Source: a virus (taxonomy: Duplodnaviria; Caudoviricetes). Taken from it: a stretch of 64,000 nt of DNA. A program made the position numbers and the translations under genes. Under the pieces are notes generated by a model, which ran no database searches, had not been told where the DNA came from, and saw nothing but the letters and a program-made list of their open reading frames with translations. Each line of letters starts with the position of its first letter. Position 1 is the stretch's first letter. The stretch lies in the IMG/VR virus record IMGVR_UViG_3300028832_000140, positions 3,153-67,152 of that record; one strand, 5' to 3'. Below are positions 2,931-37,144 of the stretch, in pieces.

Positions 2931-3596
2931 ATGGAACCGACAGACGAACTTTACAGGCAATGCGAGGGCTTGCTTGCGTCACGCGTCGAGGACGTGCTTT
3001 CACGGAAACCTTACCTCGACAGGGACGAGCTCAAGTCAATCGCCAACTCTATCTTCTGCGACGCTTGCAGGAGTTTCGACGGCTCGAAGGGAGCCAAGTT
3101 CACCACATACCTCTACAAGAAGCTATCGAACCTCGAAGAGGAATCGAGGCGCGTGCTCGTACCGGACGGAAGCGGAGGATACACGGTCGCGCTGAATGTA
3201 GACGACTTTGGCGAAGACAATGAAGGCAACATGTTTAAGGTCCGGGTAGACAAAAGCGTAATCCTTCCCGCGTCCATAGCCTACGCCGAGCGCATGGCCG
3301 ACGACGGTCATTCGGAGCTGTTCAGCCATTGCGACAAGGTGCTGTCTGCCGATTCCGCGAAGGTAGTGGGCGACATCGTGGACGGCGAACTCGACCCGAA
3401 ATACAGGAAGGGAACGGCGGTACACGACAGGCGGTACTCCGGAAACTGCGTCATGAACGCTAGGCGCCTCTGGCTACGCAGGTACAGGAACATGGGCTGG
3501 ACCGTTGAACAGTGCGAGCGGACGCTAAAGGAAGTCCGGAGCATAGTCAATCAATACAGCCGTGGGCGACTGCCGTGCAGGCTGGTCCGCGTATAA
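2931..3596 (+). CDS. Phage sigma-factor-like transcription regulator (candidate late activator)
   Basis: ELKSIANSIFCDACRSFDGSKGAKFTTYLY resembles sigma70 region 2; first gene of the late block. Confidence 0.65.
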   Translation: MEPTDELYRQCEGLLASRVEDVLSRKPYLDRDELKSIANSIFCDACRSFDGSKGAKFTTYLYKKLSNLEEESRRVLVPDGSGGYTVALNVDDFGEDNEGNMFKVRVDKSVILPASIAYAERMADDGHSELFSHCDKVLSADSAKVVGDIVDGELDPKYRKGTAVHDRRYSGNCVMNARRLWLRRYRNMGWTVEQCERTLKEVRSIVNQYSRGRLPCRLVRV

Positions 3597-26659: not shown

Positions 26660-26709
26660 CCCGTCGCGGTTTTATTCATAGTGGGAAAATTAACGAGGAT
26701 TCCCACAAG

Positions 26710-28023
26710 ATGCACTATCTAGTACCAGTACCGATGCAGTACGTAGACGAGTCCGGCGTCCCTCGCGACGGAGGCTCCGTCAGCGTATACAGGACCGGCA
26801 CGCCGGAACTCGCCGCCATATACCAGAACTCGTCTACTGACGAACTCGCGGAGAACCCTTCGCAGTTGGATTCGAGCGGTATGTGGAGGGCTTTCGTCGA
26901 TGCAGGCATCCCTCTCGACTACATCGTGAAGGACAAGGGCGGCAACGTCATAGCCACCTATATAAACATTTCAATTGACGTCGGTTCCGGTTCCGGCGGT
27001 GTCACGAAGGAATACGTTGACGCGCAGGACGACCTTATCCGCGAATCCGTCACCGAAATTTCGAACGACCTCGACGACGAACGCGAAAGGGCGGTTGCCG
27101 CCGAAGCCGCGGCAAGGACCGTCGTCAAGGAAGGCGTCGGCATTTCCGTCACGGAGGTCGTCAAGGATGACGGTCATTCAGAATTTACCATCGACAACGA
27201 GGGCGTAACAGGCGTAGAAATCGCGAGCCCGAACGACACCGTGTCCATATCGAAGACGAAGGACCCGGTTACCGGCGTGGAGCACTTCAACATTGAAGTG
27301 AACAATACGGAAGGCCAGTACATAAATATCGCTTCCGATTCCGTGTCGCACGGTACCGATACGCAGACGCTCGAAGACGATACGAGAAAGTACGTCCCGC
27401 TCGCTGATTCCGAACTTTCCGGTCTCGTCGGACGCAACGGCATCACGTTGCAGGATTCCGAGGATGATGTCGTGAACGCGGTCGCCGTACTCGACCACAA
27501 CAGGAAATACCTCTGCACCGCGCAGGTGAAGGTGACTGTCAATGCGAACACGAACGACATGGTGAACGTGGACGTGTTCACGATGGTGGGCCACCAGAGA
27601 TGGCTCGCGGGTTCGTTCTCCGTAGATACGACGCTTGACCACTCGACTAGCAAGACTATAACGTGGATGGTGGAAGGTACGGACGCGACCGGCATACAGA
27701 TGGCCCTTTCGGAAGACGGTACGGGCGCGGAAGTAGAGGTGGAGGTGAAACAGCTCTTCATCGCCGAATTCTCTTCCATAACCGGTACTGGTGGCGGCGG
27801 TAGCCGTACGTACATCCCCGGCGACGCCATCAACATCACGGACGACACGATTTCAGTCCGTTACGGATACGGCCTAGACATCGACTCCACGAATAATAAA
27901 CTCAAGGTTTCGTCCGAGATTACCGACCAGATAGACGACCTGAAGGACAACCAGCTGAAGATAGCCCCGCCCGAACACGAGGGCGTCGGCACGATGCTTT
28001 TCTACACGGGGGAACTGATATGA
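26710..28023 (+). CDS. Tail protein with head-binding-like N-terminus
   Basis: Start ATG 26710 after TTTATTCAT and GAGGA; QYVDESGVP..GSVSVYRTGT. Confidence 0.65.
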   Translation: MHYLVPVPMQYVDESGVPRDGGSVSVYRTGTPELAAIYQNSSTDELAENPSQLDSSGMWRAFVDAGIPLDYIVKDKGGNVIATYINISIDVGSGSGGVTKEYVDAQDDLIRESVTEISNDLDDERERAVAAEAAARTVVKEGVGISVTEVVKDDGHSEFTIDNEGVTGVEIASPNDTVSISKTKDPVTGVEHFNIEVNNTEGQYINIASDSVSHGTDTQTLEDDTRKYVPLADSELSGLVGRNGITLQDSEDDVVNAVAVLDHNRKYLCTAQVKVTVNANTNDMVNVDVFTMVGHQRWLAGSFSVDTTLDHSTSKTITWMVEGTDATGIQMALSEDGTGAEVEVEVKQLFIAEFSSITGTGGGGSRTYIPGDAINITDDTISVRYGYGLDIDSTNNKLKVSSEITDQIDDLKDNQLKIAPPEHEGVGTMLFYTGELI

Positions 28024-28259
28024 GCCTCGAATCGGCAGTGAAGGCGGGGGTAGCCGTCAAGATGGGGACGGTGGAGAAAATCGTAGACGAGTCCGGCGAC
28101 GTTACGGAGTTGCCGTTCCCGGTAAACGTGATAATCGACGGTACCCAGAGCACCCCGTTCATCAACGTCATCAAGGCCTTGTGCCGTTACATAGAGAGTA
28201 ACCGCGAGGCCGTCGAAATCGGCAAGGAAACCTTAAAGAAGAATAATGGAGGCGAATGA
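28020..28259 (+). CDS. Hypothetical tail-region protein
   Basis: ATGA overlaps at both ends. Confidence 0.6.
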   Translation: MSLESAVKAGVAVKMGTVEKIVDESGDVTELPFPVNVIIDGTQSTPFINVIKALCRYIESNREAVEIGKETLKKNNGGE

Positions 28260-29806
28260 TGCCCGATCCGACCTACAAGGACCTATTCTACATCAAGGAC
28301 GCGACAAACAACGTCATCTACCAGATAAAGGCGACTTCTCTCAAGGATGCCATCACTATCGCGTTGTCTGGTGACGTTGCAGGTTCCGCTTCCACCACGT
28401 TCGGGTCTAACGTGACCATTTCGGCTGTCATTGAGAACGGCGTGGTGACACATTCCAAGCTCGCAACCGACGCCGTGCAGAACGACGTTATCAAAGACAA
28501 CGAGATTACGAAGCCGAAGTTCAACTCGTCTGTATATGACGAAGTGAATGGTACAATCGCCGACGGCACTAACTCCAACCTTGCGACAAAGACGCAGGTC
28601 AAGGCCTACGTCGAGTCAGTCATCAGCTCCGAAGGCCACTACAAGGGCGTGCAGAGCGTGGCGACAATCAACACGTGGACTGCGGCGAACCTGCACAACG
28701 GCGACCGAGTGATTACATCCAGCGACCCTGCCGGTTCCGGTACCGGAACGCTAACGCTCGGGAACCTCCCCGTGGTAGACGGGCAGGAAGTCATCTTCTA
28801 CGTGTCCGACGACCAGAGCGTGAAGATTTGGCAGAGCTCCGAAGGCAACTACAAGCTTAAGCAGGCGGCGGTCTCGGACCCGACCGCAAGCGGAACGACA
28901 ATCACGGCCATTGACACCATTACGCAGAACGCGAACGGCGAGATCACCCCGACAAAGAAGACCATCCGCAGCGCCACCACATCCCAGACTGGCGTGGTCC
29001 AGCTTGCGGGCAGCATCGGGGCCACGGTGGCTTCCGAGAACAACAAGGCCGCCTCCGAGAAGGCGGTCAGGGACGCAATAAACGCCTTGGACTCCAACGC
29101 CACCAGCACGGACGGCACCAATGTCCAGGTCAAGGTGACGACTACGGACGGCATCGTTTCGGCGGTGAACATCACGACCGACAATACCGAAAACGTCAAC
29201 AACAAGACGGCGACCATCCGTGACGCTTCAAGCGCGGACGACGACAAGTACCCGACCGAGAAGGCGGTGCGTGCCGCTATCGACGCAATTGACGGGGGCG
29301 CTTCCGAGATGGGCGAGGTGGTGGCCGCATCGCTCAACGACCTGGACGCCCGCATCAAGGCTGTGGAAGAATCCGTGGCCGAGGAAAATCTCGGCGACCG
29401 CACGGCCGACAGCCTCGACGTGCAGGTGCTGAAAATCGGCGGCGACGAAATCGCCCCCGGCACGGCTACGCCAAATGCGGTAGGCAGTTCCGCATCCGTT
29501 GGTTCCTCCGGCAAGTACGCCCGCGAGGACCACACCCACAATATCGTAGTCGCAAGCGGCGACAGCGAAGGGCAGGTCAAGGTAGCTGGTCAGAACGCGA
29601 CCGTCAACGGATGGAGCGCCATCTCCGGCAAGGCGGGCTCCGCAATCCAGGGCGTGAAGGTGAACGGGACCGCACTCACTCCCGACAGCAACAAGGTCGT
29701 GGACATCCCTGCCGCAAGCACGAGCGCATACGGAGCCGTACAGTTCATGACATCCTCGGAGGCGGCAAGCCTCTGGGCTAACGCATGGGCCGCAGCCACG
29801 GCATAA
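28256..29806 (+). CDS. Tail fibre protein
   Basis: Thr/Ser/Ala-rich fibre modules (ATTSQTGVVQL, ASTSAYGAVQ). Confidence 0.7.
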   Translation: MMPDPTYKDLFYIKDATNNVIYQIKATSLKDAITIALSGDVAGSASTTFGSNVTISAVIENGVVTHSKLATDAVQNDVIKDNEITKPKFNSSVYDEVNGTIADGTNSNLATKTQVKAYVESVISSEGHYKGVQSVATINTWTAANLHNGDRVITSSDPAGSGTGTLTLGNLPVVDGQEVIFYVSDDQSVKIWQSSEGNYKLKQAAVSDPTASGTTITAIDTITQNANGEITPTKKTIRSATTSQTGVVQLAGSIGATVASENNKAASEKAVRDAINALDSNATSTDGTNVQVKVTTTDGIVSAVNITTDNTENVNNKTATIRDASSADDDKYPTEKAVRAAIDAIDGGASEMGEVVAASLNDLDARIKAVEESVAEENLGDRTADSLDVQVLKIGGDEIAPGTATPNAVGSSASVGSSGKYAREDHTHNIVVASGDSEGQVKVAGQNATVNGWSAISGKAGSAIQGVKVNGTALTPDSNKVVDIPAASTSAYGAVQFMTSSEAASLWANAWAAATA

Positions 29807-29824
29807 TGACAAGGAGAATCGCAA

Positions 29825-29998
29825 ATGTCGCAGACCTATGACAACAAGGCTATAACGGGCGCGGACCTTGAGACTATCCTCACATCCGCCGCATCGGAAA
29901 TCAAGAAGAAGCAGGACATCATCGACGCCGAGTACGACGCCGCAAACGGCATGATCGTGCTTAACAACATCGACATCAGCGTGGCGAGCTCCACGTAG
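29825..29998 (+). CDS. Small tail-region protein, 57 aa (not in ORF track)
   Basis: AAGGAG RBS; MSQTYDNKAITG matches the N-terminus of 33303. Confidence 0.7.
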   Translation: MSQTYDNKAITGADLETILTSAASEIKKKQDIIDAEYDAANGMIVLNNIDISVASST

Positions 29999-30015
29999 AC
30001 AAGGAGAATTGAACA

Positions 30016-31398
30016 ATGGCAGGAAGCTATATCAACAAGTACGCCGACGCGGCCGAATACGCGGCAGACACCGCACGCTCGGCCCTCGGCAAGAGCACCG
30101 TATCGCTGGAATCCGACAGCGGGGTCCTGCACTACGACGGCGTCAACGTTGAAATCCACAAGAAGGCCGTCAAGGTGGGCGACGCCGTGTACGTTGACGG
30201 CAGCGGCAACCTCCACTTCATCGACACTACCGGCACGGTCAACAACACTGACCTCACCACGGCTGTCGCAAGCGGCGGTCGCGGGTGGACTTCCGTCGGC
30301 GTTGTAGGCATGAGGAAGGGACAGAAAGCCTTGATATTGCACAAGACGGAGACCGAAACGAAGTACATCAACGCTTGGGCCTTCAAGGTTACGGGCTACG
30401 CGGCAGGAACGGCAATCGTCTTCAAGGCTTACACTGCCAGCGATACGACCGAATACGTGGAAGTGACCGGATTCACGCCTACCGCAGAGAACGTGGCGAG
30501 CGTCAGCGCCATGGCTACCGCCATGAACTCGTTCCTCACGACCAACCAGAACCCGACCGGAGCCGTGCAGACTAACTGGTCCGCATGCGTGATGAAGGAC
30601 GCGTCAGGCAACGACGCCGTGTTCATGCTCCTGGAAGGCAACTCGTCAAGCGGAGTCTACTACTCGCACAGACAGAGCCCCATCAAGAGCGGCGCTACGG
30701 CAACTCTCGCAACGTGGGACCTGCTCGGACTTACATCCGACAAGACCACGAACGCACGTGTCAACGGCTCGCACGACTTGCGTGCAGGATGGAACAAGGA
30801 CCAGCTCTACAACTACTACAAGGCCTCCACAAACCGCGATTCCGTGGGTTCACCGACAGACTCAATTACTAGCGGCGGCATTATCTCGGAGAAGGCGTGG
30901 AACAACAACAGCTTCCCGACGGTAAAGGCTTACTACGGCACGTGGGACAAGTACCTCGACAGCGTGATGCTCAAGGTTCCAGCCGGAGCGTATTCCTCGG
31001 ACGCCCTGCCTGTGTACTACGGCAAGGCGAAGGAAATCCAGGACAAGGCGAAGACGGTCACGTTCACGTCCGTCATCAGCGGCAGCGAGAAGAAGGTGTT
31101 CAAGGCTTTCGACGTGTCCGCGAGCGTATCCGACGGAGGCGCCGGTCTCGATTGGTACATGCCCGGCATAGAGGAGGCATTCGGGATATTCAGCCAGATG
31201 AAGGTTGACGGCTCCGACCCCGTGAACTCCGCCATGGTCAAGATAGGGAGTACCGCCCGCAACCTGGAACAGACGCGTTGGGTCCCTGCGCGCTATGCCA
31301 ACCTTAACGCGTGGTTCATGGCCGCCTACGGCTCCTTCACCTTCAGCGCCTTGGCCAACACTTCTCGGGCGTGTGCGGTGGCGCTCTTAAACCTTTAA
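30016..31398 (+). CDS. DGR target, putative receptor-binding protein with C-terminal CLec-like domain
   Basis: C-terminus DWYMPGIEE...RWVPARY..AW..G..RACAVALL carries the VR. Confidence 0.9.
   Translation: MAGSYINKYADAAEYAADTARSALGKSTVSLESDSGVLHYDGVNVEIHKKAVKVGDAVYVDGSGNLHFIDTTGTVNNTDLTTAVASGGRGWTSVGVVGMRKGQKALILHKTETETKYINAWAFKVTGYAAGTAIVFKAYTASDTTEYVEVTGFTPTAENVASVSAMATAMNSFLTTNQNPTGAVQTNWSACVMKDASGNDAVFMLLEGNSSSGVYYSHRQSPIKSGATATLATWDLLGLTSDKTTNARVNGSHDLRAGWNKDQLYNYYKASTNRDSVGSPTDSITSGGIISEKAWNNNSFPTVKAYYGTWDKYLDSVMLKVPAGAYSSDALPVYYGKAKEIQDKAKTVTFTSVISGSEKKVFKAFDVSASVSDGGAGLDWYMPGIEEAFGIFSQMKVDGSDPVNSAMVKIGSTARNLEQTRWVPARYANLNAWFMAAYGSFTFSALANTSRACAVALLNL
31274..31388 (+). repeat. DGR variable repeat (VR)
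   Basis: 115-nt ungapped match to TR; 25 mismatches, all opposite TR adenines. Confidence 0.97.
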
Positions 31399-31411
31399 CC
31401 TTTTTCAGCTT

Positions 31412-31435
31412 GGCGGCGGCCTCCGCGCCGTCGCC
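31412..31435 (+). promoter_or_regulatory. GC hairpin downstream of VR (DGR target-recognition element)
   Basis: ggcggcggc-ctccgc-gccgtcgcc, 13 nt after the target stop codon. Confidence 0.7.
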
Positions 31436-31467
31436 CTGCACCCTCTACACAAAGGAAACTACACGAT

Positions 31468-31908
31468 ATGCAGGAACTGCACAACGTAAAGGGCTCTCGC
31501 AAGAACGGCATCTACGTGGACTGCAAGCAGCTCGCGATGAGGCTCTACAAGCTCTCGTTCACGATGGCGAAGCGCGACCGCGTAATCTTCGGCGACCGCA
31601 TGCTGTCACTCGCCCTCGACTGCGTTGAGGACTTCGCTTTCGCGTACCAGTATCCCGAAAGGAGGGTGGAATATACCGAAAGGCTCATATTCGACTTCGG
31701 CAGGCTCAAGGAGCTTATGCGGATGGCGTGTGACCTCAAGATTATCTCGACGAAGCACTACGTGACGATTTTCGAGTACGTGGAGCGTATCGACGAAGGC
31801 GTAGGGAAATACCGCAAGTACGGAATTTCCAAGGTTCAGGCAGCCGCGGGTTCAAACGACGGCCGTGGCTCTGGTAACGAAAGACAAGAGGAGGCGACGG
31901 TATCATAA
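31468..31908 (+). CDS. avd: DGR accessory protein Avd (four-helix bundle)
   Basis: 146-aa helical protein between VR and TR; IFGDRM..ALD..RLKELMRMACDLKIIS. Confidence 0.85.
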   Translation: MQELHNVKGSRKNGIYVDCKQLAMRLYKLSFTMAKRDRVIFGDRMLSLALDCVEDFAFAYQYPERRVEYTERLIFDFGRLKELMRMACDLKIISTKHYVTIFEYVERIDEGVGKYRKYGISKVQAAAGSNDGRGSGNERQEEATVS

Positions 31909-31969
31909 ATACCAGTATCGGCAGTGCGCCTTATCCCGTGCATCCCCGGTTGTTCCGGTAGGGTTGTCT

Positions 31970-32084
31970 CGCGTTGGGTCCCTGCGCGCTATAACAACAA
32001 TAACGCGTGGTACATGAACAACAACGGCAACTTCAACAACAACAACTTGAACAACAATAATCGGGCGTGTGCGGTGGCGAACTT
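31970..32084 (+). ncRNA. DGR template repeat (TR)
   Basis: 17 AAY triplets in the VR frame, 37 adenines; lies between avd and RT. Confidence 0.97.
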
Positions 32085-32105
32085 GATTTCCCGTTACCGC
32101 TGGAG

Positions 32106-33296
32106 ATGGCTATGGTAAGACTGGAAGACTTGACAGAAGCGTATTTCATGGCCCGCGCAAACAAGCGCAGGTCAAACGATTCCGTCCGTTTCGAGGTTGG
32201 CTTCGAGACAGGTCTTGTCCGGCTCATGGACGACATCAACCGCCGTACATACACGGCCAGCTCCAACTACGCCTTCGTCGTGTTCTCCCCCAAGCCGAGG
32301 GAGATTTTCGCCACGGAGATGCGGAACAGGGTGGTACACCACTACCTCGACTGGAGACTGCGTCCGATATACGAGAAGGTTTTCAGCGACAGGACCTTCA
32401 ACAACCGCAAGGGCATGGGACTGCACAAGGCGATAGCGACTTTCCGCGAGGACGTGCGCGAGATGACCGCAGACTACACGCAGGACGCGTGGATAGCCCA
32501 CCTAGACATCAAGGGGTACTTCCCGAACGCAGACGTGGAAATCGCGCTCAAGCAGCAGCTCGACCTAATAGATACGTACTATGATGGAGAGGACAAGGAA
32601 GACCTCAAGTACATGATGACGGTCTGCATGCGCGCCGATCCTGCGAGACACTGCGACGTTTTCGTCCCGAGGACGAACTGGTCTGCCATCGCTCCCGAAA
32701 AGAGCCTATTCAACAAGCCGGTAGGCGTAGGCGGCGCGATAGGTTTCCTCTGCTGGCAGAACGCCATGGGGAACTACATCAACGATGTCGTGAAGTGGCT
32801 ACAGGGACACGAATTCCTGCGCATCGTTGTGTTCGTCGACGACATCTACGTGGTAACGTCCGACAAGGCAAGGTTCCTCGCCTTGATGCCAGTATTGCGT
32901 TCCAAGCTGGCCGCGCTTAATGTTCGCTTCAACGAGGGCAAGTTCTACATGCAGCACTACTCCAAGGGCGTGATGATGCTGGGTACGGTACTCAAGTTCC
33001 ACAGGCAGTACGCCAACAACGGGACCGTAAAGCGCGGATTCCGCAGGCTACGCGATTGGGCGGGTGTAGGCAGGATTAGAAAGGCCGACATTAACCGCAT
33101 GCTGTGTTCTCTGAATACATACTGCGGGATATTCAAGGGACACAACAACGGAAGGCACCTTGAGTTATTCATGGAGGAAGGATTGCGTAGGCTAGGCAAG
33201 TACGTGAAATGGAACGAGTCCAAGAAATGTTTCAACCTTGTCAGGAACTTTAACGACTATTTGATTTCCCGATATGCGGGCAGGAAGGCGGTGTAG
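32106..33296 (+). CDS. DGR reverse transcriptase
   Basis: KPREIFA..RNRVVHH, LDIKGYF, KSLF, IGFLCWQ, FVDD; start ATG 32106 or 32112. Confidence 0.93.
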   Translation: MAMVRLEDLTEAYFMARANKRRSNDSVRFEVGFETGLVRLMDDINRRTYTASSNYAFVVFSPKPREIFATEMRNRVVHHYLDWRLRPIYEKVFSDRTFNNRKGMGLHKAIATFREDVREMTADYTQDAWIAHLDIKGYFPNADVEIALKQQLDLIDTYYDGEDKEDLKYMMTVCMRADPARHCDVFVPRTNWSAIAPEKSLFNKPVGVGGAIGFLCWQNAMGNYINDVVKWLQGHEFLRIVVFVDDIYVVTSDKARFLALMPVLRSKLAALNVRFNEGKFYMQHYSKGVMMLGTVLKFHRQYANNGTVKRGFRRLRDWAGVGRIRKADINRMLCSLNTYCGIFKGHNNGRHLELFMEEGLRRLGKYVKWNESKKCFNLVRNFNDYLISRYAGRKAV

Positions 33297-33302
33297 ACGA
33301 TT

Positions 33303-35924
33303 ATGTCAGAGACTTACGACAACAAGGCTGTGAACGGCAAGGAACTTGCGGAGCAGACGCTCGTGGGCGTTGCCTCCGAAATCAAGCGGGAAGGATACGT
33401 CAGCGCCGCCGCCTTCAACGACGTGGTGGCTCGCCTCGTGGCCTTGGAAAAGGCGATGGCAGAACAGAACCTCGGAGAACGCACCGCCGACTCAATCGAC
33501 TCGCAATCGCTCAAGGTGGGCGGCACCGACGTCAAGACGAAGCAGGCCGCCAAGAGCAACCCTTCCGCAAGCAGCGGCAGTGCCACCACGTTCGTCGATA
33601 CGCTTTCGCAGAACGAAAACGGCGAAATTACGGCCACTCGCAGGGCCATGAAGCTGTACACGGGTACGGGCTCCAATACGGACGCACCGATGACGCAGAA
33701 GGCCGTCAAGGAAGCCCTTGATACTAAGGCCCCGATTGCATCGCCTACGTTCACGGGAACCCCTGCCGCACCTACCGCAAGCGGTTCTACGGACACCACG
33801 CAAATCGCGACTACGGCTTTCGTGCATGACGCCATCGAGAACGACCTCAAGAAGGCCGCCGATGTTTCGGGCATGGGCAACGACGACACCCACGCCTACA
33901 GCGGCGAGGCAGTCAGCATGGCCATTTCGTCGGCAGTCAGCGGTAACGTTGGCGGTTTCCTCGGCAACATGACCGTAGCGCAGATGAACGCCTACACTAA
34001 CCCGAAGATGGGCGACAACGCAATCGTGACGGACACGGGAACGATTACGGTAGGCTCCGAGTCGTGCGTTATTACTACGGCGCCATCCGAGGTGCGCTGG
34101 ACTACAAGCGGTTCGTGGAAGGTGTCTTCCGCTGGCTACGTGCGCGACACGCAGGTGGCGACTACGAGCGTCCTCGGCCTCGTCAAGTTGAACACGTCCA
34201 ACGGCGGCGTGGAACTTAACTCAAGCAACCAGATGGTCGTTCACGGGTGGAGTACCAAGCAGGACTCGTTGCCGTATGCAAACGGCAAGTATGGGATCGA
34301 CATCAGTGGAAGTTCAAGCTCGGCCTCTGTTGCAGGAGAACTGGAGAAGGTGTCGCTCGGACAGGTTGACGAACTGCCTGTTAGCCTCATCGTAAATTCA
34401 AATTTCAAGGCCGGGACGTTCCTTTTGAAAGGTGACGATTACGGAGGACAGCCTTACGTGTTCGGTAACGTTACGATTCCGAACAACCAATGGTATCGTT
34501 TTACCGTAAGCGGTCAAACGTCTACCGACTGCGTGATTACGCTTGAACCTTGTACTGGTGGTTCATCGTCCCCGTTCAACATCTTCAAGATTCTTGTAGA
34601 CAACGGGAGTTCAAGAACCGACAAGGTGATGAAGGTGGTGCGCGTGCCTTACGAGTCTACCTCGTCTGCCGTCGGTGATTCGTCAAAGCCGGTATACGTA
34701 GACGAAAGCGGAGAAATCAAGGAATGCAATCCGTCTAGCATGTCAGTCGGCTACGCTTCGGCCGCAGAGAGTGGGTCCGCATTGGCGCAGGCAATAGCCC
34801 CGGATGCCGACGTGGCTCTGATTGTATATGGCGATGCTACGTACTCGTCCGTGAAGGCACTGTACAACGCAGGGAAGAAACTCTACCTCGTGACTGGCGG
34901 CAACATCCAGCCTAGCGGAAAGTTTGAGTACCGCATACCCCTTACGCTAATTACCTACGATGCGAACAACGAGGTCAACGCCTTCTATTTCGAGTATGCG
35001 CAGGATGACCGAAACGGGGCATCGGAAGTATCGTCCATTGCCGTGTATCGTCTTGATTCTACCGGGTGGACATCTACGGCAAAGGCTGTCGGTTATGCCA
35101 CGAACGCTGGACATTCGTCTACAAGCGGTACGGCAACCAACGCCACGAACGACCACGGCGGCGCGAAGATAAGGGACGCGTACATATCTAATGTAGTCGA
35201 CAGCGTCTACGATGCGACTAACCCTCCTCAATACATTTATTCGTTTGACGGCGTCAGCGTCGCCGCGAACCAGGACGGATTCAGGGTGGCTACGCTGTCG
35301 AGGTACAAGATACCTTTCCCTCGCGTGTACTTCCACACGCGAAGTGAACTGACGGTGCGAAATCCGACAGACCAGTCTTCGACCACTCCTGATAATTGCG
35401 CATACATTATCAATAACTCAACCGCAAGTTTAGGATACAATGGTTTTACTTGTCTCGGTCATGAAAAACCAATAGGATACGGTCAAAAATATTATGGTGT
35501 CTGCTCGACAGATTTAATTGTTGGGTTGACAGAAATTGATTTCGATTTCAGCGCGACGTGGGTCAATCACACCATGGAACAGCAAAATTTCCCTCCGTCA
35601 TTCATGCAGATAGTGTTTGCCGCAACGTGGGACGAGAACGATTTTCAGCAATATCCTAATTGTGGCTATGGATTCGCACTAAATCATGAGAACATCTTCA
35701 CTACGACTAGAGGAAGCTACAGATTCGAATATGGAACTTCGGGCTTTAATAATGACATGCCAGTTATGGGACATGTGAGGATGGTCGGTGTTATTGGCAA
35801 TGCAGGATTAAGGCGTCTTTTTATCGGTGCGTTCCAACCGCGTTCAGATGCGTACATAAAAATGAAAATTTCGAACGTCAGAGTACGTGGAAATCTTGGC
35901 GCTATGGAAGCAAGCGTAATGTAA
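33303..35924 (+). CDS. Long tail fibre protein
   Basis: APIASPTFTGTPAAPT..DTTQIATTAFV fibre motif; modules shared with 28256 and 29825. Confidence 0.8.
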   Translation: MSETYDNKAVNGKELAEQTLVGVASEIKREGYVSAAAFNDVVARLVALEKAMAEQNLGERTADSIDSQSLKVGGTDVKTKQAAKSNPSASSGSATTFVDTLSQNENGEITATRRAMKLYTGTGSNTDAPMTQKAVKEALDTKAPIASPTFTGTPAAPTASGSTDTTQIATTAFVHDAIENDLKKAADVSGMGNDDTHAYSGEAVSMAISSAVSGNVGGFLGNMTVAQMNAYTNPKMGDNAIVTDTGTITVGSESCVITTAPSEVRWTTSGSWKVSSAGYVRDTQVATTSVLGLVKLNTSNGGVELNSSNQMVVHGWSTKQDSLPYANGKYGIDISGSSSSASVAGELEKVSLGQVDELPVSLIVNSNFKAGTFLLKGDDYGGQPYVFGNVTIPNNQWYRFTVSGQTSTDCVITLEPCTGGSSSPFNIFKILVDNGSSRTDKVMKVVRVPYESTSSAVGDSSKPVYVDESGEIKECNPSSMSVGYASAAESGSALAQAIAPDADVALIVYGDATYSSVKALYNAGKKLYLVTGGNIQPSGKFEYRIPLTLITYDANNEVNAFYFEYAQDDRNGASEVSSIAVYRLDSTGWTSTAKAVGYATNAGHSSTSGTATNATNDHGGAKIRDAYISNVVDSVYDATNPPQYIYSFDGVSVAANQDGFRVATLSRYKIPFPRVYFHTRSELTVRNPTDQSSTTPDNCAYIINNSTASLGYNGFTCLGHEKPIGYGQKYYGVCSTDLIVGLTEIDFDFSATWVNHTMEQQNFPPSFMQIVFAATWDENDFQQYPNCGYGFALNHENIFTTTRGSYRFEYGTSGFNNDMPVMGHVRMVGVIGNAGLRRLFIGAFQPRSDAYIKMKISNVRVRGNLGAMEASVM

Positions 35925-35948
35925 AAATTTAACAGAGAGGATAACTAA

Positions 35949-36476
35949 ATGGCAAAGAGCAACAAGGTACTGCTCAACATCGACCAGAGTTCAGATACTT
36001 CTGCGGAAGAAAAGGCGCGAGCACGTAACAACATCGGAGCCGTGGCCGGGTCGGAAGTTCCCGACCTTTTCGTGTGGCGATGGAACGATACGACTCCTCA
36101 ATGGACTATCGTGGGCGCTGACGAAATAGTGAGATTGTGGTATTCAAAGAACTATCATGTGAATAATGCCTCTATCGAACTAAACAGCTCTCATTCCAGT
36201 ATCTGCTTCATAGACGTTACTTTGCCTGAACTGAACGCTAACGAAACTTACAAACTGTCTTTCGAGATAGACATAAGAGCGGTAGGCGCAGATTATTCGA
36301 GTGCCAGCGTTGTAATTCGTATTGATTCAGAAACAAGCGGATTTACTCTTCTTCCAGAATACGATACGGACGGAAATGTCCCGTTGAACAGACTACAGCT
36401 TCCAGCGCAAGGCGCTACGGTCAAGCACAAGGTGTACGTTGACGGCCATGCGTTCAGGGTGGCCAGGCTTGCATGA
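35949..36476 (+). CDS. Tail-fibre-associated protein
   Basis: EEKARARNNIGA motif; position. Confidence 0.5.
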   Translation: MAKSNKVLLNIDQSSDTSAEEKARARNNIGAVAGSEVPDLFVWRWNDTTPQWTIVGADEIVRLWYSKNYHVNNASIELNSSHSSICFIDVTLPELNANETYKLSFEIDIRAVGADYSSASVVIRIDSETSGFTLLPEYDTDGNVPLNRLQLPAQGATVKHKVYVDGHAFRVARLA

Positions 36477-37144
36477 TTAACTTCCTACAGATAGCCATCA
36501 CCAACGAGTGCAACTTTTCCTGCTGGCATTGCCCGATGGGGAAGTGGCGCAACTCGGAGAAACCGAAGTTCCCGTTGAACAACGGCGAACTTTTGCCTTT
36601 CCTTGAACGCTACGTAGACCCGAAAAAGTGGGTAATCGAACTCACGGGCGGTGAGCCGACCTTGTATGAGGGCTTTGACGAACTGCTTGAGTGGATGTCT
36701 ACGCACGGCTATTACACGCTTGTCAAGACCAACGGAAGCAACCCTGTCAAACACTACGATAACGTGAAGGTATGCGCCGCGTTCCACCGACTTGAACAGC
36801 CTCCAAGATACTTTGACGAGTACCTAATCGTTGACAAGATTCAGCGGGAGGAGAAGGAAGCCTACTGCAAGGAGCGCGGGATACCGTACAAGGTAATTGG
36901 CTACAACAAGGAGAACCCGGACGACGCCACGTGCGGATTCACGTTCGTCGCGTTCGTAAACCCTGCCGGACACAACCTCTCATGCCCTGCCGACAGACCC
37001 GCGCAGCTCGTGGAAGGTTGCGACGATTACGGACGCATCAACCACCGCGAGTTCTTTTACGGGCGGTGCTGCAAGACTTGCAAGGCGGCGGTAGACGCGT
37101 GGCGCTTCCTGCCGGATGAAATCAAGGCAAGGGCTACGCAATAG
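36473..37144 (+). CDS. Radical SAM protein
   Basis: CNFSCWHC, ELTGGEPTL, TNGS; C-terminal Cys. Confidence 0.85.
   Translation: MINFLQIAITNECNFSCWHCPMGKWRNSEKPKFPLNNGELLPFLERYVDPKKWVIELTGGEPTLYEGFDELLEWMSTHGYYTLVKTNGSNPVKHYDNVKVCAAFHRLEQPPRYFDEYLIVDKIQREEKEAYCKERGIPYKVIGYNKENPDDATCGFTFVAFVNPAGHNLSCPADRPAQLVEGCDDYGRINHREFFYGRCCKTCKAAVDAWRFLPDEIKARATQ

Follow-up and report, generated by a model that had tools for sequence, protein, structure and literature searches.

Adenine-specific repeats of a diversity-generating retroelement in the tail-fibre block of an uncultured cattle gut phage

The IMG/VR record IMGVR_UViG_3300028832_000140 (67,152 bases, 100% complete by CheckV) represents an uncultured phage of the cattle gut or rumen. 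A 64,000-nucleotide stretch of it (positions 3,153 to 67,152 of the record; hereafter the window, to which all positions refer) carries what is very probably a complete diversity-generating retroelement (DGR) of the BPP-1 type, set within the block of tail-fibre genes. Three intact open reading frames (ORFs) lie in the order target gene, avd and reverse transcriptase (RT) gene (Table 1). A noncoding template repeat (TR) sits between avd and the RT gene, 27 nt ahead of the RT start codon, and a variable repeat (VR) supplies the last 41 codons of the target ORF. This order had been proposed in a first-pass annotation made from the sequence alone and is borne out by the ORFs together with Pfam and PHROG matches. 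Avd matches phrog_3206, "Avd protein of DGR" (E 1.2e-10, residues 12-137 of 146), with no Pfam or PDB sequence match. The RT matches Pfam RVT_1 (E 2.8e-12) and phrog_1423 (E 2.1e-41), and its only PDB match is 8ub7 (E 1.3e-9; residues 5-142 align well), which we take to be the BPP-1 RT (bRT) complex, the entry title reading only "Reverse transcriptase". These RT searches used 32109-33293, one codon longer at the 5' end than the protein read from ATG 32112. That ATG is most likely the true start, rather than GTG 32067 of the longest ORF, because GGAG lies six bases upstream of it and homologues begin there.

The VR and TR align without gaps over 115 nt, as the first-pass annotation had it, and a repeat search recovers the same pair independently (family D2, 78% identity). 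The first mismatch at a position other than adenine falls at 31389/32085, confirming the ends of both repeats. All 25 mismatches within the alignment occur at TR adenines (11 A>C, 8 A>T and 6 A>G), and the chance of 25 mismatches all landing on the 37 adenines among 115 sites is about 1.5e-16. The VR itself retains 12 adenines. Translated in the frame of the target gene, the TR reads RWVPARYNNNNAWYMNNNGNFNNNNLNNNNRACAVANL, in which 17 Asn residues correspond to AAY codons. The TR has a single VR partner in the whole record; a third match is a 17-nt chance match. DGR architecture and strict adenine specificity are thus directly visible in this genome, and the architecture is that of the textbook: the element is a clear but ordinary instance of a well-known system.

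At their 3' ends, the two repeats share an 18-nt GC-rich block, CGGGCGTGTGCGGTGGCG (31366-31383 in the VR and 32062-32079 in the TR), after which their tails part from 31384/32080. A GC-rich inverted repeat begins 28 nt past the block in the target gene copy and folds with a 9-bp stem and a 6-nt loop. The first-pass description of a common block, divergent tails and a hairpin is accurate on each of these points. Judged by layout, the GC block and VR tail would constitute an initiation of mutagenic homing (IMH) element, with the TR tail as the corresponding IMH*. Four related IMG/VR contigs carry the locus (L007, L008, L009 and L010), giving five VRs for comparison with that of the window included. 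The GC block is identical in the window, L007 and L008, with one substitution each in L009 and L010, and 26 of the 28 positions of the VR tail (31384-31411) are identical across the five loci, only 31392 and 31407 varying. The hairpin is identical in L007, L008 and L009; in L010, another inverted repeat takes up that position.

The same alignment revises the estimate of how much of the TR is subject to mutagenesis. The initial count was of 25 mutated adenines among 37, and every mismatch does fall on an adenine. Two of them, however, at 31384-31385 (CT in the VR, AA in the TR), lie 3' of the GC block, and CT is present in five of five VRs compared; these are therefore fixed IMH/IMH* differences rather than products of mutagenesis, and the figure becomes 23 of 35. 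By the same argument, the 17 AAY codons reported earlier are all present in the TR, but the 17th lies beyond the GC block and 16 are diversifiable. The earlier figure of about 15^17 (about 10^20) variants holds in order of magnitude, the recomputed ceiling being 15^16 x 48, or about 3e20 proteins (15^16 x 4 x 4 x 3, from the AAY codons plus the single-A codons TAT, TAC and ATG). In a set of 22 natural protein variants, 77-94% identical to the window protein, codon 457 of the target (31384-31386, the 17th TR AAY) encodes Leu in 18 and Asn, as the TR does, in one. This lone Asn may reflect occasional integration of cDNA further 3', or a different TR.

Table 1. Features of the DGR cassette and its immediate 5' neighbour, in window coordinates
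Feature	Coordinates	Strand	Basis or remark
Small ORF, 57 aa	29825..29998	+	directly 5' of target; possible partner of target
DGR target gene, 460 aa, putative receptor-binding tail protein	30016..31398	+	ORF; C-terminal profile match
VR	31274..31388	+	sites actually changed span 31297-31364
GC-rich block common to VR and TR	31366..31383	+	counterpart of (GC)14 part of BPP-1 IMH
VR-specific AT-rich tail, IMH-like, holds target stop codon	31384..31411	+	differs from TR tail 32080-32107
GC-rich inverted repeat, candidate hairpin/cruciform target-recognition element	31412..31435	+	9-bp stem, one G-T, loop CTCCGC
avd, 146 aa	31468..31908	+	phrog_3206 match
TR	31970..32084	+	37 A, 17 in-frame AAY codons; GC block copy 32062-32079
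DGR-type RT, 394 aa from ATG 32112	32112..33296	+	RVT_1, phrog_1423, PDB 8ub7; motif 4 IGFLCWQ, active site FVDD

The related contigs record repeated homing in the recent evolution of this phage lineage. Over its 115 nt, the TR of L008 is identical to that of the window and the TR of L007 differs at the first base only; with a longer, 171-nt query (31940-32110), both contigs are 99.4% identical to the window. When each VR is set against its own TR, mismatches at adenines account for 17 of 17 in L008, 24 of 25 in L007 and 18 of 18 in L009. The TR of L009 departs from the window TR by 13 substitutions, each of which recurs in L009's own VR, the concerted change expected if the TR has overwritten the VR again and again. 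The target gene of the window diverges from those of L007 and L008 by 2.7-3.5% outside the VR and by 26-30% in the first 92 nt of the VR. Across the five VRs, 35 of the 37 TR adenines are replaced in at least one, and 33 of these sites precede the GC block (31297-31364); only the A of TAT and that of ATG never change. The same concentration of change is evident in the 22 protein variants, in which entropy lies at 2.1-3.0 bits at the 16 AAY codons and at TAC, against a mean of 0.27 bits in the rest of the protein, where no other column exceeds 2 bits.

Metagenomes provide a further view of VR turnover. The listing of runs that contain the sequence has 20 entries from 12 studies, most with the label bovine gut metagenome, and four of these runs (X1, X3, X4 and X6) were compared, all as assembled Logan contigs, in which assembly drops minor variants. 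In run X4, a 404-nt contig across the VR differs from the window at 31 positions, 29 of them inside the VR and 28 of those 29 at TR-adenine sites. A contig of the same run that takes in avd, the TR and the start of the RT (31424-32300) differs at two positions, none in the TR. This adds another, independent instance in which the VR has turned over between populations and the TR has stayed fixed. The element may also be active in present populations. In run X6 the contigs end at 31219 and restart at 31365, leaving the VR uncovered, and run X3 covers 10 of 30 bins; such gaps are not evidence. In each of the four runs, summed contig depth over the TR core (31973-32087) exceeds that of the flanks by a factor of 5 to 70. 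Attribution of the high depth over the AAC-rich TR (31973-32074) to the window phage was rejected, the depth coming from other contigs with matches of 50-110 nt and about 10 differences. Since many unrelated contigs match the TR core, TR/VR sequences of this scaffold type appear to be abundant in cattle-gut samples.

Several observations weigh against reading the locus as a complete BPP-1-type DGR that diversifies a tail adhesin. In the RT, the hallmark motif [ILV]GxxxSQ has no Ser. As a DNA fold, the hairpin is only moderately stable (-12.1 kcal/mol, z -2.4, 3 of 200 shuffles as good), and its 6-nt loop (CTCCGC) departs from the 4-nt GRNA loop that passages of PMC3240598 report for BPP-1-like phage DGRs. 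The RNA fold around the TR (31909-32230) is no better than that of shuffled sequences (z -0.08), a search of 29000-34000 against Rfam is empty at E up to 1, and a promoter and terminator scan finds two promoter-like sites against 1.8 expected, which is chance level. Pfam, PHROG and PDB sequence searches of the target protein give no match, and a six-frame search of the genome with the Pfam Lcl_C model (PF07603) returns nothing at E up to 10. One of the 29 in-VR differences in run X4 and one of the 25 in L007 are not at adenines. Finally, run X1, the likely source of the record, has one contig across the region with no differences from the window, in an assembly format that loses minor variants. 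BPP-1-type mutagenic retrohoming, as first proposed for this locus, is nonetheless supported by every sequence-level hallmark of the repeats and gene order set out above and by the comparison of relatives.

Expression of the cassette may be tied to that of its neighbours. The 9-mer TTTATTCAT occurs in 15 copies on the + strand, against 0.39 expected, and is absent from 26680-37144, the block that holds the fibre genes and the DGR. If this 9-mer is a late promoter, the DGR would have no promoter of its own and would be co-transcribed with the fibre genes.

The identity of the target protein is the part of the reading that bears most directly on phage biology. Its family of homologues numbers 113 proteins, all without a recorded Pfam domain. 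A 99-sequence profile of the family finds only chance-level matches in the PDB (E 0.35 or worse), none of the 99 members matches Lcl_C in Pfam at E up to 0.1 or has any other domain found there, and C-terminal fragments of the target give no Lcl_C match at E up to 10. A tblastn search with the target against 50,697 phage records and a blastn search with the whole cassette against the phage collection both give no match. Restricting the homologue search to residues 345-460 yields 26 proteins, none Pfam-annotated, and no new link. Among the 113 homologues, 16 (P0098-P0113) match only the C-terminal 13-25% of the query and carry it on a different N-terminal body, which argues that the VR domain is a mobile module.

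A link to a known family emerges from profile-profile comparison. The C-terminal profile of the target family aligns with the DGR target of Bacteroides uniformis phage Bacuni F2 (hhalign probability 91.6%, E 8e-7, 67 columns), pairing DWYMPGIEE of the window target with RWWLPSLGE, and RWVPARY....AW with YWSSTEY....AW. The F2 target in turn matches Pfam Lcl_C with E 2.6e-8 and 34.6 bits, 0.3 below the cut-off of 34.9. In the ESM Atlas, 26 of 30 named matches to residues 345-460 are clusters with Lcl_C in 13-17% of members. The C-terminus of the target is thus predicted to be an Lcl_C/DUF1566-like domain with a divergent scaffold, a candidate for the C-type-lectin fold. The opening RWVPARY in place of the more usual W[ST]S[ST], correctly pointed out in the first-pass annotation, marks this divergence.

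Given the absence of Pfam, PHROG or PDB matches, the fold and the adhesin role assigned to the target rest on this one profile-profile match plus genomic position. The gene is flanked by fibre-like genes, its 873-aa downstream neighbour matching tail-fibre PHROGs (E 1.8e-13), and the structural block around the cassette includes portal and head-closure genes. The GC content of the cassette (0.52-0.59) is the same as that of its surroundings. On the basis of its place in the fibre block and the Lcl_C-like profile link, the C-terminal domain most likely binds a host receptor. An unlikely alternative is that the DGR is real and its target is some other virion or surface protein, or a protein whose action is on something else than the host receptor. 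Consistent with this alternative, the protein matches no PHROG tail-fibre family, its N-terminal 340 residues are unannotated, and its nearest ESM Atlas clusters are unnamed or labelled "flagellin hook IN motif". The gene nevertheless has a fibre-like gene on either side and follows a small ORF whose product begins like a fibre protein, and viral DGR targets are mostly tail-structure proteins according to parts of a large survey (PMC8144416). Additionally, sections of the report on the Bacuni phages, the closest cultured DGR phages, place DUF1566 targets in the C-type-lectin group and describe an Lcl_C/DUF1566 protein whose VR differences vary in step with host range (PMC8143477). These points favour a receptor-binding role for the target.

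The small ORF upstream of the target resembles the 873-aa fibre gene at its start (29825-29870 versus 33303-33348, 76% nucleotide identity over 46 nt; family D7), and it is kept upstream of the target in L007, L008/L004, L009/L005 and L011 at 48-100% amino acid identity. In L010 a 160-aa fibre-like ORF takes its place. The 57-aa product may be a fibre N-terminal anchor made as a separate protein, or the ORF may be a remnant of module shuffling. Just past the fibre genes lies a 223-aa ORF (36473-37141) with matches to radical-SAM PHROGs (best E 1.8e-10), an uncommon neighbour for tail genes. Assignment of a host was rejected as too weak, its sole basis being a distant match (33% identity, residues 5-173) to an uncultured rumen Prevotellaceae metagenome-assembled genome.

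By analogy with BPP-1, a homing cycle can be proposed for this locus. The TR would be transcribed, and the RT together with Avd would copy the TR RNA to cDNA, misincorporating opposite template adenines. The cDNA would then replace the VR, at the 3' terminus of the gene for the 460-aa target, in a direction expected to be set by the GC block common to both repeats, the tail peculiar to the VR and the hairpin beyond it. The outcome would be variation at 16 AAY and up to three single-A codons in the putative Lcl_C/DUF1566-like domain.

It is also conceivable, if quite improbable, that this cycle belongs to the past, in which case the DGR would be a fossil, now silent, with a frozen VR and strain differences that are simply inherited. 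Loss of the element does occur in the lineage. L010 keeps a target gene 90% identical to that of the window (L010 3989-5377), complete with VR, and avd, TR and RT were found neither beside this gene nor elsewhere on its 35-kb record (88% complete). Its VR shows three non-A differences from the window TR, and L010 is probably a case of DGR loss. Nor do the assembled contigs, which drop minor variants, show within-sample polymorphism. The window, in contrast, retains all three ORFs intact and has no non-A mismatch in the 115 nt. Phages only about 3% diverged have a conserved TR and different VRs, and the copying of 13 of 13 TR changes into the VR of L009 places homing as recent on the timescale of strain divergence.

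The element is unusual in a signature motif of its RT. Motif 4 (32728-32760) reads IGFLCWQ where IGNLTSQ is usual, keeping Ile, Gly and Gln and replacing Ser by Trp. Of 128 aligned sequences that have residues at the motif (the query plus its nearest 50%-identity cluster representatives), 18 have WQ and 93 have SQ, the latter amounting to 93 of the 110 non-WQ relatives; the exact IGNLTSQ occurs in 43 of 130 aligned sequences. Phe in place of Tyr in YxDD was rejected as a special feature, F being present also in 19 of the 110 non-WQ relatives.

Related IMG/VR loci allow the variant motif to be connected with mutagenic outcome. Of 80 such loci, 38 have xWQ and 40 have IGNLFAQ, the motif pattern being unmatched in two. 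A TR/VR pair of at least 60 nt is present in 75 of the 80, and at least 90% of mismatches are at A in 67 of them; three loci have no usable pair, namely L038 (a 38-nt repeat only) and L046 and L071 (TR region cut by the contig end). Within the xWQ loci (L014-L049), 36 of 38 have a pair of at least 60 nt, and 612 of 627 mismatches are at A. That the window repeats arose by plain duplication of a segment and diverged through positive selection, no retroelement being involved, has nothing in its favour beyond a repeat being present and is refuted by the adenine bias, given 25 of 25 differences on TR adenines (P about 1.5e-16), a second copy that lies in noncoding DNA between avd and RT, and the same bias in these 36 loci, so that its probability is negligible. 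The IGNLFAQ loci (L050-L093), which have Ala for Ser, include 39 of 40 with a pair and 544 of 560 mismatches at A; this group holds 13 distinct TRs against 35 distinct VRs. Substitutions at TR adenines are to C, G and T in 20%, 45% and 35% of cases in the WQ clade (n=590) and in 16%, 53% and 31% in the AQ clade (n=490), with no striking difference between spectra in a comparison that is confounded by selection. VR peptides of the WQ clade show the scaffold [RF]W..[AC]R....AW in many loci, in a tally that took in 46 of the 80 and mostly left out the near-identical 39%-identity group.

Published work on motif 4 gives these observations a context. In the alignment with 8ub7, the bRT R74 and I181 positions are conserved in the window RT as the Arg of KPR and the Ile of IG. 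According to sections of PMC7826257, R74 and I181 of bRT promote adenine mutagenesis, and Q187P leaves the misincorporation frequency unchanged. Text of PMC3521204 lists SP, SH, NQ, PA, AQ and VQ as variants of the last two motif residues in 15 of 155 functional-looking DGRs, from which it follows that [ILV]GxxxSQ is frequent, not absolute. Similarly, a GxxxSP DGR in an epsilon crAss-like phage is described in part of PMC11054128 as overlooked by myDGR. WQ is not among the variants named in the published text on the SQ/GxxxSQ motif that could be searched, survey supplements aside. Tentatively, then, and with some doubt, the window RT may belong to a sizeable clade of phage DGR RTs with the motif IG[FHYRW]L[ILVC]WQ, in which Ser is replaced by Trp and Asn by an aromatic residue, His or Arg. 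The clade would be undescribed in searchable text, paired with a WSST-less, Lcl_C-like VR scaffold (RWVPARY, for example), and still near-exclusively adenine-mutating. Because the WQ clade mutates almost only adenines, a bulky Trp beside the templating/deoxynucleoside triphosphate pocket appears compatible with selective adenine infidelity.

Comparison with characterised systems locates the window element close to BPP-1 (mtd-avd-TR-brt) in organisation. The two share their gene order, a tail-module gene with the VR at its 3' end, adenine-only differences, an AAY-dominated TR, a GC-rich block with VR- and TR-specific tails, and a GC-rich inverted repeat downstream. They differ in that RT identity is low, with about 35 extra residues between motifs 3 and 4 in the window RT, and in motif 4 itself (IGFLCWQ versus IGSLTSQ). 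The target-site elements also diverge in detail: passages of PMC3240598 describe the BPP-1 requirement as (GC)14 plus a 21-bp element, followed by an 8-bp GC-rich inverted repeat with a GRNA tetraloop, whereas the window has an 18-nt GC block plus a 28-nt tail and a 9-bp stem with a 6-nt loop. Further differences are a target protein that lacks sequence similarity to any solved structure and the 27-nt distance of the TR from the RT start.

The closest cultured relatives of the RT are those of the Bacuni phages F1, F2 and F4 (33.5-36.3% identity over 88% of the query). Like the window element, that of F2 has the order target-avd-TR-RT, a C-terminal VR (about 108 nt) and TR/VR mismatches concentrated at TR adenines (13 of 14, as counted on the printed alignment). 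The target C-termini also share a profile, W-x-[LM]-P..E followed by the VR and then R-x-x-x-V-[AS]-x-[LF]. The F2 RT, in contrast, has the canonical IGNLFSQ in place of IGFLCWQ; its target is a 253-aa protein matching Lcl_C, as opposed to 460 aa without a match, and its VR scaffold opens YWSSTEY rather than RWVPARY. Bacuni phages are additionally described in part of PMC8143477 as having a second, remote VR, whereas the window record has one VR. The variant-motif DGR RTs mentioned above (parts of PMC3521204 and PMC11054128) resemble the window RT in that the motif end varies and VR changes stay adenine-specific. They are unlike it in that WQ defines a clade, accounting for 18 of 128 cluster representatives and 38 of 80 IMG/VR loci.

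What is new here is modest, namely an RT clade of the WQ type and an Lcl_C-like scaffold without WSST; the rest is of the known BPP-1 kind. Supplements to surveys, such as that of PMC8144416, may already list this contig or the WQ clade. If the clade is real, DGR finders that rely on the SQ motif may miss it.

DGRs are the best-known natural systems of targeted protein hypermutation, and those of phages are thought to track changing host surfaces. The present element is a particularly clean natural case from cattle gut or rumen, in which sister genomes record repeated homing. It may serve as a teaching or benchmark case and offer a way into how an uncultured rumen phage recognises its host. 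Its wider reach lies in the RT motif only, in that a whole clade with Trp for the signature Ser that stays adenine-specific constrains models of selective infidelity in DGR RTs.

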